Below, piece after piece: positions 21,963 to 29,998 of a stretch of DNA of 64,000 nt. Position numbers and translations under genes: made by a program. Below the pieces are notes generated by a model, which was not told the DNA's origin, did not search any database, and saw only the letters and a list, made by a program, of their open reading frames with translations. The DNA is taken from assembly GCF_988243305.1 (NCBI RefSeq), contig NZ_OZ547136.1; one strand, given 5' to 3'. Every line of letters starts with the position of its first letter. The stretch's first letter is position 1.

Positions 21963-22418
21963 TGGTTTATCCCCGCTGGCGCGGGGAACTCCGTCAGTGT
22001 GCCAGTTGCTACTGTTTCCCATACGGTTTATCCCCGCTGACGCGGGGAACTCATCAGTGATATCCAACATTGCGGAGCTAAACGCGGTTTATCCCCGCTG
22101 GCGCGGGGAACTCTATAAATGTGCCATATACGGCGTTTGTTGCCTCGGTTTATCCCCGCTGGCGCGGGGAACTCCTCCCGGTGATGCGGGTTATGTGGCC
22201 TGCCGCCGGTTTATCCCCGCTGGCGCGGGGAACTCTTCGCCGCGTCAACAATTCGGACCTGTAAATCCGGTTTATCCCCGCTGGCGCGGGGAACTCATCC
22301 GGCGAACGCGCTACAGAGTACAGTTCACCGGTTTATCCCCGCTGGCGCGGGGAACTCGGAAACCGCCCCGGCGGTGGTTAGCTGTTTGCCGGTTTATCCC
22401 CGCTGGCGCGGGGAACTC
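21963..22418 (-). CRISPR. Type I-E CRISPR array, 8 repeats (29 bp) and 7 spacers (32 bp each)
   Basis: Plus-strand repeat cggtttatccccgctggcgcggggaactc at 21963, 22024, 22085, 22146, 22207, 22268, 22329, 22390; reverse complement is the canonical E. coli repeat, so crRNA is from the minus strand. Repeat at 21963 starts with t, repeat at 22024 has gctgAcgc. Confidence 0.95.
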
Positions 22419-22560
22419 TCTAAACATAACCTATTATTAATTAATAATTTTTTAAGCCAGTCACAATCTACCAACTTTATAGTATCACACAAACAACACA
22501 TCCATTATGTTAAAGAGCACTTAATCCATTGATTGAAAAGCTAAATATTTAAAGTAATCC
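22419..22560 (-). promoter_or_regulatory. Putative CRISPR leader (AT-rich) adjacent to the newest repeat
   Basis: AT-rich sequence tctaaacataacctattattaattaataattttttaagcc... upstream of the first repeat in the direction of transcription; degenerate repeats lie at the opposite end. Confidence 0.5.
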
Positions 22561-22757: not shown

Positions 22758-23429
22758 TCAGGCAATATTTAGATATTTATGTGTTTGCATCGACAAACGC
22801 CAATTACGAGCAATGCAGGTTTCAATGCACAATCGTGTGGCATCATCCTTTTGGCTAATCGGCTGCAGTGCAATGACTCGCGGTTTATCATCGGTCAGCG
22901 TCGCCAAAAGTTCATCCAGTGCTTCAATATCACGTACGCGTCCCACTGGATGCTTGATTTCGTTGGCTCGCTCCAGTGCCTGTGACAACACTTCATAGCC
23001 GCCGCGCATGTTCAGCTTTGGCGATACGGTAACCCAGGTATTCGGTGTGCAGCGTACCTCATGAGTACCACTGGTTTCGATCTGGCAGCTAAAACCGTTC
23101 TTTTCGAGCAGGTCAGTCAGTGGCAGCAAATCATGAATGCAAGGCTCACCACCCGTAATCACCACATGCCGCGCGGTGTATCCCTGGCGACCAATGACAG
23201 CCAGCAAGTCTTCACTGCTCGCCGCCCCCCACTTATCACTCTCTTTGGTCTTCGCCAGAATGCTGAAAAGGGAGACTTCCCGATCCTCAAGCTTTTCCCA
23301 GGTGTGTTTGGTGTCGCACCAGGCACAGCCAACCGGGCATCCCTGTAAACGAATAAAAATGGCGGGGACGCCGGTAAAGTAACCCTCACCTTGCAGGGTC
23401 TGGAACATCTCGTTAATCGGGTACTGCAT
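22758..23429 (-). CDS. queE: 7-carboxy-7-deazaguanine synthase, radical SAM (223 aa)
   Basis: 223 aa ORF with the cysteine cluster QGCPVGCAWCDTKHTW. Confidence 0.92.
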   Translation of the reverse strand: MQYPINEMFQTLQGEGYFTGVPAIFIRLQGCPVGCAWCDTKHTWEKLEDREVSLFSILAKTKESDKWGAASSEDLLAVIGRQGYTARHVVITGGEPCIHDLLPLTDLLEKNGFSCQIETSGTHEVRCTPNTWVTVSPKLNMRGGYEVLSQALERANEIKHPVGRVRDIEALDELLATLTDDKPRVIALQPISQKDDATRLCIETCIARNWRLSMQTHKYLNIA

Positions 23430-23601: not shown

Positions 23602-24204
23602 ATGCTCAGAATATTCATCGTAATTATATTTATTTTCAATTTATCAGGCTGTGGATATAACGATATTCAAACCTATGATGAGCAGGTTAACGCCTCCTGG
23701 TCTGAGGTATTGAATCAATATCAACGTCGCGCCGATCTTATTCCTAATCTTGTCGCCAGCATTAAAGGTTATTCCAGCCATGAACGAGATGTACTGGAAG
23801 CCGTAACATTGGCTCGTAGCCAGGCTAATCGCGCCAGTAGCGATCTTCAGCAAACTCCGGGCGATGAACAAAAATTACAAGCCTGGCAACAGGCTCAAGC
23901 GCAGGTGACTCGCACTCTCGGTCAGTTAACGATAATTAGTGAGCGTTACCCTGAGTTAAAATCTCAGGAACTCTATCAAAATTTAATGGTACAGCTTGAA
24001 GGAAGTGAAAATCGGATTGCCGTTGCGCGAGGAAGATATATTAAAGCCATTGAACAATATAATGTCACTATCCGCAAATTCCCCGCTGTGTTAACCGCAA
24101 AGGTCATGGATTACACACCAAAGAAAAATTATTTGCCGGATGATGTCGCCGCAGTAAGTAAAGCCCCAACAATAGATTTTAGCCAGAATGCTAATGCTCA
24201 TTAA
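23602..24204 (+). CDS. LemA-family protein, predicted lipoprotein (200 aa)
   Basis: N-terminal signal with lipobox NLSGC (Cys17), followed by a LemA-like helical domain; first gene of a 4-gene operon. Confidence 0.8.
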   Translation: MLRIFIVIIFIFNLSGCGYNDIQTYDEQVNASWSEVLNQYQRRADLIPNLVASIKGYSSHERDVLEAVTLARSQANRASSDLQQTPGDEQKLQAWQQAQAQVTRTLGQLTIISERYPELKSQELYQNLMVQLEGSENRIAVARGRYIKAIEQYNVTIRKFPAVLTAKVMDYTPKKNYLPDDVAAVSKAPTIDFSQNANAH

Positions 24205-24217
24205 GCGGGGAAGTTCT

Positions 24218-25111
24218 ATGCGAAATTTTATCTTCCTTATGGCTTTCTTCTGTTCATCTGTGTTTGCCACACAAATTCCAGTACCTGAATCACCCAAGTA
24301 TGTGAATGACTTAACCGGCACATTAACAAACAGCGAAGTAAACACCCTGACCAACCAGATTAAAGCCCTGACGCAAAAAAACTACGCACAGTTGGTCGTG
24401 TTAGTGGTTGAAACAACTGGCGATGAAACCATCGAGCAGTACGCAACGCGGGTATTCGATAGCTGGAAACCGGGTGATAAAGACCACGATGATGGCGTTC
24501 TACTGTTAGTCGCCTGGCAGGATCATACCGTGCGTATTGAAATCGGTTACGGACTGGAAGGTATTATTACGGATGCACAGTCCGGGAAAATTATTCGCAA
24601 CAGTATTATTCCGGCATTTAAAAAAGGGGACCTGGCTGGTGGTTTGCAAAAGGGAATCAGCGATATTGAAAGTCGTCTGACGGGGAATAATTTAGCAACG
24701 ATAACACCGACCGATCACCCTTTGCCTTTTAGCGGTTGGTGGGCTTTGTTAGTCTGGGCGATAGTACTGACGTTTATTTCTGCCAGAGGATATATCAAAA
24801 CGCTGGGAGTAATTTGCTTCGCAGCTATTGTACTGGCCTTTGTTTTACCTATAGCAGGCTTCAGCGGAAGCTGGGGAGTACTCGCAACATTACTCTGCTT
24901 CGCCACACCGTTCCTGGCTGTCGCCATCGCTTTTACCCCCTTCGGCAAAAAGGTTCGGGATTCGATGCGTGATGCCAACCAGCCATCACGCCATACAAGA
25001 AGCAATTCTTCCTCCCACTATTCATCATCGTCATCCTCTTCATTCAACAATGACAATTTCAGCGGTGGTGGCGGTTCATCTGGTGGCGGTGGCGCTTCCG
25101 GGCGCTGGTAA
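24218..25111 (+). CDS. TPM-domain (YgcG-like) membrane protein, paralog 1 (297 aa)
   Basis: Signal peptide MRNFIFLMAFFCSSVFA, TPM-like core (GVLLLVAWQDHTVRIEIGYGLEG), 3 predicted TM helices, tail ...FSGGGGSSGGGGASGRW; 13-bp gap after lemA stop. Confidence 0.8.
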   Translation: MRNFIFLMAFFCSSVFATQIPVPESPKYVNDLTGTLTNSEVNTLTNQIKALTQKNYAQLVVLVVETTGDETIEQYATRVFDSWKPGDKDHDDGVLLLVAWQDHTVRIEIGYGLEGIITDAQSGKIIRNSIIPAFKKGDLAGGLQKGISDIESRLTGNNLATITPTDHPLPFSGWWALLVWAIVLTFISARGYIKTLGVICFAAIVLAFVLPIAGFSGSWGVLATLLCFATPFLAVAIAFTPFGKKVRDSMRDANQPSRHTRSNSSSHYSSSSSSSFNNDNFSGGGGSSGGGGASGRW

Positions 25112-25125
25112 CAAAAGGAATTGAT

Positions 25126-26274
25126 ATGCGTATTTTTCTCTTACTTCTGATGCTATGCGGTTTTCAGGTATTCGCTGAACAATTGCCTTCAGTAACTGAC
25201 TTAACCGGGACATTAACGACAGAAGAACAAACTGCTTTAACTCAACAATTACAGACTCTCGAGCAGCAAAACCACTTCCAGGTGGCCGTGTTGGTCACGC
25301 CGACCACAGGGGGCAAAAACATTAAACTTGCAGCCTCGCAGAGATACGGGGTATATCACTGGAAACCCGTTGGAGAGAAGCGATATGGCGAAGGTATCTT
25401 AATTCTCGTCGTATGGCCGGAAGGGCTGGCGTCAATGAAGATTGGACATGGACTGGAACAGATGTTGCCGCCGGAACAAGCTTCGCAAATTGTTCGTTAC
25501 CATATGCAGCCAGAATTCGAAAAAAACAATCTCTTTGCTGGATTAACGGGCGGAATTGAAAGCATCGCACAGTTTACCCATATCAAAGCGAACCTTAGCC
25601 CTTTGGATGCTTTAGCCAATCATCTGTTTGCTAATCCGCAACGTTCGCTGCCTTGTCTTGCCTGGACACTGCTGATGATCGTTGCCATCGTTGTCCTCTG
25701 GCGATTTGCCAGCCGCCCAGGGCGTGGCATATGGATGATATCGATGATTACCCCTATGGTCTGGTTTTTCTCCTTTCAGGACGATGTCATCATTCGGCGG
25801 GTATCGGTCGTTTGTTTTAGTTTATTGTTAGCAACAACCTGCAAGCAGCGTCTCGCGGTAGTTTTTAATATGTGCCGCGTATTTCCTATGATGCTGACCC
25901 CAAAAAATAAAAACGCTAAAGTGAAAAAACAAAAGAAGACTCCGCAGGTTCGTGAATCAGGACGAAATTCATTGTTTGTCGTGATGCTGATAATTATTGT
26001 GGGATGGTGCCTGGTGTTCGCCAGTAATAAAGATATTGCATTCATCTCAACAATTATTGGGTTAATTGATCATTTTATCGGCCCAATAACCATTGCTGGC
26101 ATCGTTCTGCTGATCATTGTGGCCAAATTTACTGGCAATCTTAAGCTGGGATCAGGAGAAAAAAGCAACAGGAAAACGGGGAATCGTAATGCTCATTCTC
26201 GCTCTTCGTCGAGAAATTCTTTCCGCGGTGGTGGCGGTTCTTCAGGAGGCGGCGGTTCATCCGGCCGTTGGTGA
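25126..26274 (+). CDS. TPM-domain (YgcG-like) membrane protein, paralog 2, diverged (382 aa)
   Basis: Signal peptide MRIFLLLLMLCGFQVFA, diverged TPM core (GILILVVWPEGLASMKIGHGLE), lysine-rich segment KNKNAKVKKQKK, TM helices, tail RGGGGSSGGGGSSGRW. Confidence 0.75.
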   Translation: MRIFLLLLMLCGFQVFAEQLPSVTDLTGTLTTEEQTALTQQLQTLEQQNHFQVAVLVTPTTGGKNIKLAASQRYGVYHWKPVGEKRYGEGILILVVWPEGLASMKIGHGLEQMLPPEQASQIVRYHMQPEFEKNNLFAGLTGGIESIAQFTHIKANLSPLDALANHLFANPQRSLPCLAWTLLMIVAIVVLWRFASRPGRGIWMISMITPMVWFFSFQDDVIIRRVSVVCFSLLLATTCKQRLAVVFNMCRVFPMMLTPKNKNAKVKKQKKTPQVRESGRNSLFVVMLIIIVGWCLVFASNKDIAFISTIIGLIDHFIGPITIAGIVLLIIVAKFTGNLKLGSGEKSNRKTGNRNAHSRSSSRNSFRGGGGSSGGGGSSGRW

Positions 26275-26279
26275 TCGTA

Positions 26280-27185
26280 ATGCGCTTAATCTTTATTCTA
26301 CTTGCTTTGTGGAGCCTTCCCGGGCTTGCCCAGCAAATTGCTGTGCCGGAGCTGCGCCAACAAGTGACTGATATTACTGGTACGTTAAGCACGTCTGAAC
26401 AGCAATCGCTAACGCAGCAGCTGCAGGATATTACACATAAAACACGGGCGCAGGTCGCTGTATTAGTAGTGCCGTCCACCGGAGACGATTCCATTGAACA
26501 ATATGCAGCACGCGTTTTTGATAGCTGGAAACTGGGAGATAAGCAGAGAAACGATGGTATTTTACTTCTGGTTGCCTGGGAGGAGCATGCTGTTCGTATT
26601 GAGGTTGGCTACGGGCTGGAAGGGGTGGTTACCGACCTGCAAGCGGCGAAGATTATCAGAGATATTTTGATCCCTGCCTTCAAAAGTGATGACCTGATGG
26701 GTGGATTAACACTGGCAAGCGAAAATATCGGCGCGCTTCTGTTGAATGGTGAATTATCGGAAGACAGGGGGGATTATTACAGTATCAATCCCTTTATTCC
26801 ATTATCGCTTGCTGTAATTATATTGCTGGCGGTACTTTCATATTTTATTGTTTTTACCGATCCGTCGAATTTACCCTGGATCACTCTCACTGGCGCCATT
26901 TACGGGATGGTATTCCTCTATGTTGCCGAGCCAGGACCATGGACCAATTTAATCGTTGCCTGCGGTATGCTCACGCCTTTTGCCATCGTACCACTGCTTA
27001 TTTTTTGGCTTATCGTTAATAAAAAGCTACGCGCTAAATACAAGAAGCTCGGTAAAGAAAGAGCTTCAAGAAAAGGTTCTTCTTCATCCTCTTCCGGTGG
27101 CGGCTCAAGTGGCGGAGGCTCAGGCGGTGGCTTTAGCGGCGGGGGCGGTTCTTCTGGCGGTGGCGGCGCGTCCGGTCGCTGGTAA
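26280..27185 (+). CDS. ygcG: TPM-domain membrane protein, paralog 3 (301 aa), probable counterpart of K-12 ygcG
   Basis: Signal peptide MRLIFILLALWSLPGLA, TPM core (GILLLVAWEEHAVRIEVGYGLEG), TM helices, tail GGGGSSGGGGASGRW; last gene before the terminator hairpin and eno, the position ygcG holds in K-12. Confidence 0.75.
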   Translation: MRLIFILLALWSLPGLAQQIAVPELRQQVTDITGTLSTSEQQSLTQQLQDITHKTRAQVAVLVVPSTGDDSIEQYAARVFDSWKLGDKQRNDGILLLVAWEEHAVRIEVGYGLEGVVTDLQAAKIIRDILIPAFKSDDLMGGLTLASENIGALLLNGELSEDRGDYYSINPFIPLSLAVIILLAVLSYFIVFTDPSNLPWITLTGAIYGMVFLYVAEPGPWTNLIVACGMLTPFAIVPLLIFWLIVNKKLRAKYKKLGKERASRKGSSSSSSGGGSSGGGSGGGFSGGGGSSGGGGASGRW

Positions 27186-27203
27186 CTCAACCATAAAAAA
27201 TGC

Positions 27204-27217
27204 CAGCCCGAAGGCTG
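27204..27217. repeat. Target-site duplication (left copy) of IS4 insertion, CAGCCCGAAGGCTG
   Basis: Identical 14-bp sequence directly flanks both IS4 ends (also 28644-28657); the true duplication may be 13 bp given the palindromic target. Confidence 0.8.
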
Positions 27218-28643
27218 TAATGCCGATCAGTTAAGGATCAGTTGACCGATCCAGTGGCTGTGTAAGAATCCGGAAACGCTCACTTGTTTCCGGATTTTTT
27301 TATGCACATTGGACAGGCTCTTGATCTGGTATCCCGTTACGATTCTCTGCGTAACCCACTGACTTCTCTGGGGGATTACCTCGACCCCGAACTCATCTCT
27401 CGTTGCCTTGCCGAATCAGGTACTGTAACGCTACGCAAGCGCCGTCTTCCCCTCGAAATGATGGTCTGGTGTATTGTTGGCATGGCGCTTGAGCGTAAAG
27501 AACCTCTTCACCAGATTGTGAATCGCCTGGACATCATGCTGCCGGGCAATCGCCCCTTCGTTGCCCCCAGTGCCGTTATTCAGGCCCGCCAGCGCCTGGG
27601 AAGTGAGGCTGTCCGCCGCGTGTTCACGAAAACAGCGCAGCTCTGGCATAACGCCACGCCGCATCCGCACTGGTGCGGCCTGACCCTGCTGGCCATCGAT
27701 GGTGTGTTCTGGCGCACACCGGATACACCAGAGAACGATGCAGCCTTCCCCCGCCAGACACATGCCGGGAACCCGGCGCTCTACCCGCAGGTCAAAATGG
27801 TCTGCCAGATGGAACTGACCAGCCATCTGCTGACGGCTGCAGCCTTCGGCACGATGAAGAACAGCGAAAATGAGCTTGCTGAGCAACTTATAGAACAAAC
27901 CGGCGATAACACTCTGACGTTAATGGATAAAGGTTATTACTCACTGGGACTGTTAAATGCCTGGAGCCTGGCGGGAGAACACCGCCACTGGATGATACCT
28001 CTCAGAAAGGGAGCGCAATATGAAGAGATCAGAAAACTGGGTAAAGGCGATCATCTGGTGAAGCTGAAAACCAGCCCGCAGGCACGAAAAAAGTGGCCGG
28101 GACTGGGAAATGAAGTGACAGCCCGCCTGCTGACCGTGACGCGCAAAGGAAAAGTCTGCCATCTGCTGACGTCGATGACGGACGCCATGCGCTTCCCCGG
28201 AGGAGAAATGGCGGATCTGTACAGTCATCGCTGGGAAATCGAACTGGGATACAGGGAGATAAAACAGACGATGCAACTGAGCAGGCTGACGCTGAGAAGT
28301 AAAAAACCGGAGCTTGTGGAGCAAGAGCTGTGGGGTGTCTTACTGGCTTATAATCTGGTGAGATATCAGATGATTAAAATGGCGGAACATCTGAAAGGTT
28401 ACTGGCCGAATCAACTGAGTTTCTCAGAATCATGTGGAATGGTGATGAGAATGCTGATGACATTGCAGGGCGCTTCACCGGGACGTATACCGGAGCTGAT
28501 GCGCGATCTTGCAAGTATGGGACAACTTGTGAAATTACCGACAAGAAGGGAAAGGGCCTTCCCGAGAGTGGTAAAGGAGAGGCCCTGGAAATACCCCACA
28601 GCCCCGAAAAAGAGCCAGTCAGTTGCTTAACTGACTGGCATTA
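27218..28643 (+). mobile_element. Insertion sequence IS4, complete (1426 bp)
   Basis: Imperfect terminal inverted repeats TAATGCCGATCAGTTAAGG (27218-27236) and TAATGCCAGTCAGTTAAGC (reverse complement of 28625-28643); single 442-aa transposase ORF; 1426 bp matches the recalled IS4 size; flanking direct repeats. Confidence 0.9.
27302..28630 (+). CDS. insG: IS4 transposase (442 aa from [14 protein letters not shown])
   Basis: ORF track 27284..28630; recognised as IS4-family transposase sequence. Confidence 0.88.
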
Positions 28644-28657
28644 CAGCCCGAAGGCTG
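28644..28657. repeat. Target-site duplication (right copy) of IS4 insertion, CAGCCCGAAGGCTG
   Basis: Matches 27204-27217; rejoining the flanks rebuilds a palindromic hairpin aaaaaatgccagcc-cgaa-ggctggcattttt. Confidence 0.8.

Positions 28658-28684: not shown

Positions 28685-29998
<1,314 letters not shown>

Follow-up and report, generated by a model that had tools for sequence, protein, structure and literature searches.

Proteins with a TPM domain (DUF477) and proteins of the LemA family are among the commonest bacterial envelope proteins without an agreed function; for the TPM domain, the functions proposed in publications include those of a phosphatase, an ATPase and an assembly chaperone. 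One described member, BA41 of Bizionia argentinensis (5ANP), is built of a signal peptide, a TPM domain, a membrane helix and a Gly-rich tail. Its structure resolves the TPM domain only (145 residues), not the tail, and the searchable literature passes such tails off as a 'low-complexity segment' or a 'glycine-rich extension'. In this study, we analyzed a 64,000-nucleotide (nt) stretch of Escherichia coli DNA (contig NZ_OZ547136.1 of assembly GCF_988243305.1; the whole stretch is referred to as the window) which carries, between queE and eno, three TPM paralogs with the BA41-like order of elements, and we examined the short peptide with which all three of them terminate. The deposited sequence of BA41 ends with ...GGGGFGGGGASGGW / ...GGGFGGGGFGGGGASGGW, i.e. 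it carries the same motif. Our comparisons revealed that this tail is the most conserved part of the membrane-anchored TPM proteins, above the TPM domain itself, and that in E. coli it is an ordinary feature of the family and not a new kind of element.

Paralog 1 and BA41 (5ANP) match with E 7e-20, and a LemA gene is located upstream in both B. argentinensis and E. coli. The two systems differ in the number of membrane helices (one in BA41, three or more in the E. coli paralogs) and in gene content: the Bizionia-type module comprises one tailed protein plus the small, cytoplasmic stand-alone TPM protein BA42 (structures 2LT2, 2MPB and 4OA3), whereas the E. coli locus encodes three tailed proteins and no BA42 homologue. 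The E. coli genes and their tails (the latter read from the DNA) are as follows:

24218..25111, plus strand, TPM paralog 1, 297 amino acids (aa), Pfam PF04536 with E 3.8e-40
25058..25108, plus strand, tail motif of paralog 1, FSGGGGSSGGGGASGRW, then TAA
25126..26274, plus strand, TPM paralog 2, 382 aa: signal peptide, divergent TPM domain, enlarged multi-helix membrane region, tail
26221..26271, plus strand, tail motif of paralog 2, FRGGGGSSGGGGSSGRW, then TGA
26271..27185, plus strand, TPM paralog 3, 304 aa; its start overlaps the stop of paralog 2
27132..27182, plus strand, tail motif of paralog 3, FSGGGGSSGGGGASGRW, then TAA

An earlier note on this DNA, made from the sequence alone, had claimed that paralogs 1 and 3 end in the same 15-aa peptide with 8 of the 15 codons differing synonymously, which was taken to argue that purifying selection, and not recent gene conversion, has kept the peptide the same. 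The codons quoted there agree exactly with the DNA, and so does the end given for paralog 2; the identity of paralogs 1 and 3 in fact spans 17 residues. The last codons of paralog 1 are ttc agc ggt ggt ggc ggt tca tct ggt ggc ggt ggc gct tcc ggg cgc tgg taa, and those of paralog 3 are ttt agc ggc ggg ggc ggt tct tct ggc ggt ggc ggc gcg tcc ggt cgc tgg taa, so that 9 of the 17 tail codons differ synonymously and none non-synonymously. The tail of paralog 2 has two residues unlike those of the other paralogs, including S for A at position −5 (counted from the C-terminus).

The rest of the proteins has diverged strongly: paralogs 1 and 3 are 42% identical overall, and paralogs 1 and 2 share 36% identity over the TPM domain. 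In the codon alignment of paralogs 1 and 3, non-synonymous differences are present in 163 of the 292 aligned codons and in 32 of the 40 codons that immediately precede the tail, as against 0/17 in the tail itself (Fisher p = 1.7e-6 for the tail vs the whole gene, and 7.7e-9 vs the upstream 40 codons). Identical codons account for 7/15 in the tail, while ~4.4/15 would be expected at saturation from the codon usage of the locus, which indicates that the synonymous sites are near saturation; a trace of recent gene conversion between these two genes is not seen. E. coli orthologues diverge too little for an informative ratio of non-synonymous to synonymous substitution rates (dN/dS), with the exception of the O22:H8 orthologue of paralog 1 (87% identical), in which the tail has undergone eight synonymous and no non-synonymous changes.

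Some further observations concern the DNA of the tails. When the lemA plus three-TPM cassette is compared with the K-12-type yqcG plus ygcG arrangement, homology resumes at ~27111, inside the tail DNA of paralog 3 (window positions 27111-27217, 110 nt, 90% identity), and runs into the terminator shared with eno; the right boundary of the variable region therefore lies within the tail. The tail DNA of paralogs 1 and 2 is 85-87% identical to that of K-12 ygcG over ~50 nt, so the tails could act as recombination substrates. In O157:H7 (Z1811), paralog 1 contains an in-frame stop within the third membrane helix (locus L123, 1119-1793; annotated as 224 aa), and paralog 2 (L123, 2027-3175) has a tail with Gly replaced by Val at the conserved position −3 (...SSVRW), which suggests that the locus is decaying in that lineage.

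The distribution of the motif was established from two directions. In the domain-side search, the TPM domain without the tail was used as the query against 1.84e9 cluster representatives, which yielded 22,033 matches at E ≤ 1e-3, and the tails were read in 143 new sequences among the best 150 of these matches. The motif ends 108 of the 143; most of the other 35 are seemingly truncated, frameshifted or wrong-frame gene calls. The consensus is [FYW]-x-GGGG-x-[SF]-GGGG-A-S-G-x-W-COOH, of which the blocks GGGG...GGGG-A-S-G are near-invariant. The residues found in the 108 tails were:

position −17: aromatic in 75/108
positions −12, −8, −7 and −6: G in 108/108
position −5: A in 94 and S in 14 of 108
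position −4: S in 105/108
position −3: G in 90/108
position −2: free (R 39, S 37, G 13, K 7, N 6, D 5 of 108)
position −1: W in 105, F in 2 and Y in 1 of 108 (aromatic in 108/108)

The terminal Arg-Trp singled out in the earlier note is thus correct with respect to Trp only, since position −2 is free.

In the tail-side scan, one genome per species was searched with the DNA pattern GGN GGN GGN GGN GCN WSN GGN NNN TGG TRR. At least 121 sites were found in at least 120 loci; the loci listed belong to Omnitrophota, Bacteroidota, Pseudomonadota (Proteobacteria), Verrucomicrobiota, Patescibacteria (candidate phyla radiation, CPR), Negativicutes and others. Among the matches listed, the tail is followed by a true stop codon, never TGG, in 121/121, each site closes a long Gly-rich stretch, and all 108 open reading frames (ORFs) of at least 180 aa (108/108) encode a TPM domain. 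Positions −17 to −10, which the pattern left free, give the same consensus, every Gly position uses all four Gly codons, and Ser −4 uses both TCN and AGY. A peptide that is conserved with all synonymous codons in use, and is found from both search directions, is a protein-level, family-defining motif. The question of whether homologous tails vary freely or vanish elsewhere can therefore be answered in the negative: the motif is kept family-wide in many phyla. Together with the synonymous-only changes in the tails, this confirms the preference for purifying selection over gene conversion, and from these sequence comparisons we consider it established that strong purifying selection acts, in many phyla, on the peptide and not on the DNA. 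With 108/108 ORFs recovered in a blind DNA scan (among the matches listed), the motif is a near-perfect annotation marker of the subfamily.

A 42-aa tail profile searched against the protein database matched short C-terminal fragments and split YgcG-type genes only, and no second tail-bearing family. The split genes (L129, 3444-4643; L130, 2787-4222) consist of a TPM ORF followed by a 64-73-aa ORF for a membrane helix plus tail, with LemA adjoining; they may be frameshifts, assembly errors or genuine splits.

The anatomy of the E. coli proteins is best illustrated by paralog 1:

24218-24268, plus strand, signal peptide
24302-24670, plus strand, TPM domain
24719-24949, plus strand, three membrane helices, followed by a basic juxtamembrane stretch, a Ser-rich linker and the tail

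Paralog 3 shows the same order (signal peptide, TPM domain, three membrane helices, KR-rich juxtamembrane stretch, G/S linker, tail). The signal peptides of the three proteins (MRNFIFLMAFFCSSVFA, MRIFLLLLMLCGFQVFA and MRLIFILLALWSLPGLA) are of the typical Sec type. A TPM hidden Markov model built in the course of this work matched paralogs 2 and 3 with E 5e-33 and 8e-62, respectively, and the profile matches of all three paralogs, together with the TPM fold of the paralog 1 model described below, place them in PF04536 (TPM_phosphatase). The presence of a signal peptide, a TPM domain, at least one membrane helix and a basic juxtamembrane stretch, as well as the C-terminal motif in all three cases, identifies them as proteins of the BA41/YgcG type. 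In RefSeq genomes each is named 'TPM domain-containing protein', and the start of paralog 3 agrees with the RefSeq annotation of other E. coli genomes.

Other assignments were tried and rejected. The NCBIfam model for Psb32 (NF047379) reached 33.7 and 31.2 bits vs a cutoff of 160. The YxzE-like putative bacteriocin family (PF25184) matches only the Ser/Asp/Gly-rich linker plus tail of some enterobacterial homologues (P0067, residues 278-343, E 3e-5); as these are membrane proteins of ~300 aa, the match is most likely compositional, and paralog 1 gives none. The proteins also fall outside the LPXTG/PEP-CTERM/GlyGly-CTERM class, the order of the elements being reversed.

In every protein of the family set, the TPM domain and the tail are separated by one or more hydrophobic segments. 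By two crude hydropathy counts, the number of helices is odd (1 or 3) in 96/108 and 93/105 proteins, respectively. The 15 residues that follow the last helix have a mean net charge of +2.5 (positive in 95/105), while the charge before the first helix is ~0. The signal peptide, the odd helix number and the positive post-helix stretch together indicate that the TPM domain is periplasmic and the tail cytoplasmic, which is the topology predicted for the family. The cytoplasmic region typically spans 54 residues (median; interquartile range 44-66), and the linker preceding the motif, which is 43% Gly with Ser, Arg and regularly spaced Phe, varies freely even among close relatives. In some tailed TPM proteins, from Bacteroidales and an actinobacterium-like high-GC contig (L010, L066 and L081), a zinc-ribbon-like region of ~110 residues with four CxxC pairs follows the second hydrophobic segment and precedes the Gly-rich tail; the even-looking helix count of these proteins fits poorly with a cytoplasmic zinc ribbon.

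Two AlphaFold2 models were built. In the first, a BA42-like protein was fused via the native 40-residue linker to the tail of its neighbour, and the alignment was paired across 30 loci; the TPM fold was predicted with a local distance difference test score (pLDDT) of >90, the linker with <50, and the last five residues (ASGGW) with ~82, as a β-strand, and residues 143-145 at the C-terminus of the BA42-like protein itself also formed a strand. The second model, of native E. coli paralog 1 with 84 homologues, comprises a TPM domain (pLDDT >90), three helices (residues 174-239), a disordered segment (254-280; linker <50) and a tip whose last 7 residues have a pLDDT of 92, with a β-strand at residues 293-296 lying alongside the conserved N-terminal VND strand (29-31, invariant D31). 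As read from pLDDT and strand assignment, AlphaFold2 thus adds the tip as a predicted strand to a TPM domain in both contexts, and the predictions are compatible with an affinity of the tip for the TPM fold. When compared by Foldseek, the paralog 1 model matched 5ANP with a TM-score of 0.91 and could also be superposed on 7TBR and 2KW7. The fold search additionally returned TPM-like subunits of mycobacterial CIII2CIV2 supercomplexes (8HCR J, 6HWH O and 6ADQ J; E ~5e-3), in agreement with published suggestions that TPM domains act in membrane-complex assembly.

The genes adjoining the E. coli paralogs are:

22758-23429, minus strand, queE, the left neighbour of the operon
23602..24204, plus strand, lemA (ORF call), first gene of the operon, for a LemA-family protein with a lipoprotein-type signal (...FNLSGC)
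27204-28657, insertion sequence (IS) element of the IS4 family, inserted in the hairpin terminator between paralog 3 and eno; transposase ORF 27284-28630
28685-29983, minus strand, eno, the right neighbour

The lemA gene, which ends 13 nt 5′ of paralog 1, and the three paralogs form a tightly packed plus-strand operon. The lemA product is labelled 'LemA family protein' in identical and near-identical E. coli genomes, and it matches the NCBIfam model for MamQ (LemA-fold) with E 1.5e-25, under the cutoff of that model. The whole locus is 100% identical to that of E. coli strain FDAARGOS_1288. The form with lemA and three TPM genes occurs in 1102 of 5426 complete E. coli genomes, while the same slot in most other E. 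coli, K-12 included, is occupied by yqcG plus ygcG. Tandem Repeats Finder detected no repeat in the region, the promoter and terminator scan of the region gave background levels only, and the PADLOC defence-system models had zero matches for LemA or the three paralogs.

Two side observations were made on the flanks of the operon. The IS4-family element is bordered by a 14-nt direct duplication (CAGCCCGAAGGCTG, at 27204-27217 and 28644-28657), and the O157 and avian pathogenic E. coli (APEC) versions of the locus lack this element. Just upstream of queE, at 21964-22431, there is a CRISPR (clustered regularly interspaced short palindromic repeats) array with eight E. coli type I-E repeats (GGTTTATCCCCGCTGGCGCGGGGAACTC) at a 61-nt spacing; the same position carries the annotation 'CRISPR' in other E. 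coli genomes.

The association with LemA and BA42 was assessed in 68 loci with adequate flanks, taken from the tail-scan loci listed. LemA is adjacent in 60 of them and a BA42-like small TPM protein is present in 54 (both in 49, LemA only in 11, the BA42-type only in 5, neither in 3). The BA42-type partner is small, devoid of a signal peptide and usually of a membrane helix, and ends with ...NELPDxxx; in a PDB search the small protein was matched to BA42 (2LT2/4OA3; E 3e-53) and the tailed one to BA41 (5ANP; E 2e-95). According to 90 homologues, LemA has a lipobox in Proteobacteria and an MKK plus helix anchor elsewhere, with a net negative stretch after the helix, a pattern which places the LemA domain in the periplasm. 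The E. coli locus shares with these modules the adjacent LemA gene on the same strand, and a BA42-type gene was found neither between queE and eno, in the window, nor in other E. coli and Klebsiella variants (the rest of the E. coli genome was not searched). Judging from its gene content, the locus is a variant of the known module, composed of LemA and three tailed proteins with no BA42-type gene. Three tandem tailed paralogs and no BA42-type gene are also found in a related gammaproteobacterium, and the Klebsiella locus encodes LemA, one tailed TPM protein and a paralog-2-like protein. We also observed a 130-aa membrane protein encoded after the latter gene in Klebsiella and, in E. coli O22:H8, after the single TPM gene (L125, 4260-4622). 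Around Firmicutes-like double-TPM representatives, PspA neighbours were sought and LemA or unrelated genes were found instead, and a search for LemA-TPM fusions as a clue to topology returned one read-through artefact only.

What might such a tail do? The earlier note had proposed a docking or sorting motif. Docking is a plausible interpretation, given the disordered tether, the invariant cytoplasmic tip and the AlphaFold2 models, while sorting finds no such backing. The reading that we tentatively favour is that the tail is a tethered docking motif for a cytoplasmic partner. The Gly-rich linker would serve as a flexible tether under the membrane, and the invariant tip, with the free carboxyl terminus of its Trp, would be a short linear motif that binds the partner by β-strand addition. 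For the canonical module, the proposed receptor is the BA42-type protein, because it is the only TPM fold in the compartment of the tail; it would link the periplasmic LemA/TPM unit to a cytoplasmic TPM unit. That BA42 is indeed the receptor in canonical modules is conceivable but doubtful. In E. coli, the receptor might be another cytoplasmic protein or the tails of the co-expressed paralogs. Rather unlikely as a whole is the most extended version of this scheme, in which the tail is a transmembrane coupling element, the periplasmic LemA/TPM unit being wired via the helices and a leash of ~50 residues to BA42, and in which enterobacteria have rewired the tip to another receptor, or the tips to each other, via additional tailed paralogs.

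Several observations weigh against docking on a cytoplasmic partner, and against BA42 in particular. The confidence with which AlphaFold2 places the tip is no lower when the tip docks on the periplasmic TPM domain of the same protein; with a cytoplasmic tail this cis contact is topologically impossible, and AlphaFold2 ignores the membrane, but the docking may be a generic pairing of a conserved terminal strand with an open sheet edge. In about 10% of the family, the helices seem to be even in number or the residues that follow the last of them are acidic, and two of these proteins (L027 and L031) show a clean two-helix appearance with a short acidic tail. A nearby BA42-type gene is lacking in 14 of the 68 other loci as well, and the motif is equally conserved where there is none (E. 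coli, Klebsiella, Bartonella and several Bacteroidales), which excludes BA42 as the sole receptor. The paralog-2-like protein of Klebsiella sp. has kept its signal peptide, membrane helices and tail, and no TPM domain is detectable in it (L127, 6911-7696; 261 aa with several membrane helices and a perfect tail, FRGGGGSSGGGGASGRW). Clustering of the neighbouring ORFs revealed, beyond LemA and the second TPM gene, no conserved cytoplasmic partner, and the other clusters (M23 peptidase, MerR, FtsE, AlaRS) reflect lineage-specific synteny only. Finally, a functional study of the tail, or the motif string itself, was not found in the searchable literature.

Some of these observations might be explained by homotypic assembly, in which the Gly-rich tails of several copies would associate under the membrane as intermolecular β-strands or polyglycine-II bundles nucleated by the tip. 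The triplicated tailed paralogs without a BA42-type gene in E. coli and the related gammaproteobacterium, the Klebsiella protein that retains helices and tail without a TPM domain, the Gly content of the linkers (43%) with their regularly spaced Phe, the failure to find a conserved cytoplasmic partner gene nearby, and the self-interaction of Bacillus subtilis YdjH in two-hybrid assays (PMC8581546) would all fit such a scheme. We nevertheless regard it as quite unlikely, since most genomes encode a single tailed protein per locus, the monomer AlphaFold2 models leave the linker unstructured, and a near-invariant, ordered A-S-G-x-W fits a specific binding motif better than compositional assembly. 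The tail might instead be recognized by a cytoplasmic AAA+ protease such as FtsH or confer resistance to it, or its Trp might re-anchor it at the membrane interface. It is cytoplasmic, disordered and at least 22 residues long, like the segments at which membrane proteases start, it combines a 'slippery' Gly-rich tract with a terminal aromatic residue (108/108), and LemA genes adjoin htpX in some Firmicutes; on the other hand, degrons and interface anchors seldom need 15 or more invariant positions and the gene neighbourhoods hold no pointer to a protease, which makes this a decidedly unlikely explanation.

Very improbable, in our view, is a periplasmic location of the tail, with docking on its own TPM domain (in cis or, within an oligomer, in trans) next to the conserved N-terminal VxD strand, where it would act as a lid or auto-inhibitor. 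The confident placement of the tip (pLDDT 92) as a strand beside residues 29-31 (VND) in the native E. coli model, and the few members with two clear helices and a short acidic tail (L027 and L031), are what such a model predicts. They are outweighed by the odd helix count (93/105) and the positive post-helix stretch (95/105), by a linker with no hydrophobic segment able to cross back, by the blindness of AlphaFold2 to the membrane, and by the TPM-less Klebsiella paralog, which is still tailed. A C-terminal sorting or processing signal for a sortase-like or rhombosortase-like enzyme or an export system would share with the tail its location at the extreme C-terminus, its strict conservation and a Gly-rich composition reminiscent of GlyGly-CTERM, but known signals consist of a motif, a hydrophobic helix and a basic cluster, whereas here helices and a basic cluster precede a hydrophilic motif ending in Trp; no NCBIfam sorting-signal model was matched and no sorting enzyme is conserved nearby, so we hold this possibility to be highly improbable. 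Low-complexity drift, gene conversion or an element acting at the DNA or RNA level might be suspected from the composition of the tails, from the 85-90% similarity of the paralog tail DNA over ~50 nt and from the boundary of the K-12-type cassette that falls inside the tail DNA. An explanation of this type is scarcely tenable and, by the codon comparisons, already refuted: 9 of the 17 codons differ between paralogs 1 and 3 with no amino acid change, the peptide is conserved between phyla although all of the synonymous codons occur in it, and the flanking linker, which is of equally low complexity, varies freely.

If the extended scheme, with the tail as a transmembrane coupling element, is correct, it would provide the first mechanistic handle on two very widespread families without an agreed function, LemA and TPM. 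A strictly selected terminal motif in the cytoplasm implies that these proteins have a cytoplasmic job besides their periplasmic one. The 17-residue tail may itself serve as a reagent, e.g. in peptide pull-downs, in a nuclear magnetic resonance (NMR) titration of BA42 (Ac-FGGGGFGGGGASGGW-COOH) or in W-to-A alleles.

Among the described systems close to the E. coli operon is E. coli K-12 YgcG, a member of the same family encoded in the same slot between queE and eno. It has an identical 17-residue tail, with four synonymous codon differences from paralog 3, whereas outside the tail it is only ~40% identical to paralogs 1 and 3, and in K-12 the single TPM gene is preceded by the 46-codon yqcG and not by lemA. 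With respect to the possible mode of action, the tail can be compared with the tip of SSB, where a Gly-rich disordered linker ends with a short invariant peptide that docks on partner proteins through its terminal aromatic residue and free carboxylate. This is an analogy of mode of action only: the two tips are unrelated in sequence, that of SSB (DDDIPF) is acidic, and SSB is a soluble protein.

YdjH of B. subtilis, a TPM protein of the membrane whose C-terminal segment is of low complexity (bioRxiv 10.1101/2020.09.24.301986), is encoded in an operon (pspA-ydjGHI) with PspA, flotillin-like and zinc-ribbon partners, not with LemA, and its C-terminus, ...SRGSF as inferred from a published reverse primer, is at best a diverged form of the motif. 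Recruitment of two cytoplasmic proteins, PspA and the flotillin-like YdjI, to the membrane depends on YdjH, and in two-hybrid assays YdjH interacts with each of the two (PMC8581546). By analogy, this recruitment lends independent experimental support to a cytoplasmic recruiting role of the tailed proteins, the part of YdjH that makes the contact being unmapped in that study. Psb32/TLP18.3, which acts in photosystem II repair and assembly, has a TPM domain in the lumen (the equivalent of the periplasm) and a C-terminal membrane helix, and its structures were matched by Foldseek (3PVH and 8C7I). Psb32 lacks the Gly-rich extension, while its non-photosynthetic homologues and the cyanobacterial 'Psb32-like' proteins have it (10.1101/2025.05.08.652833, preprint).

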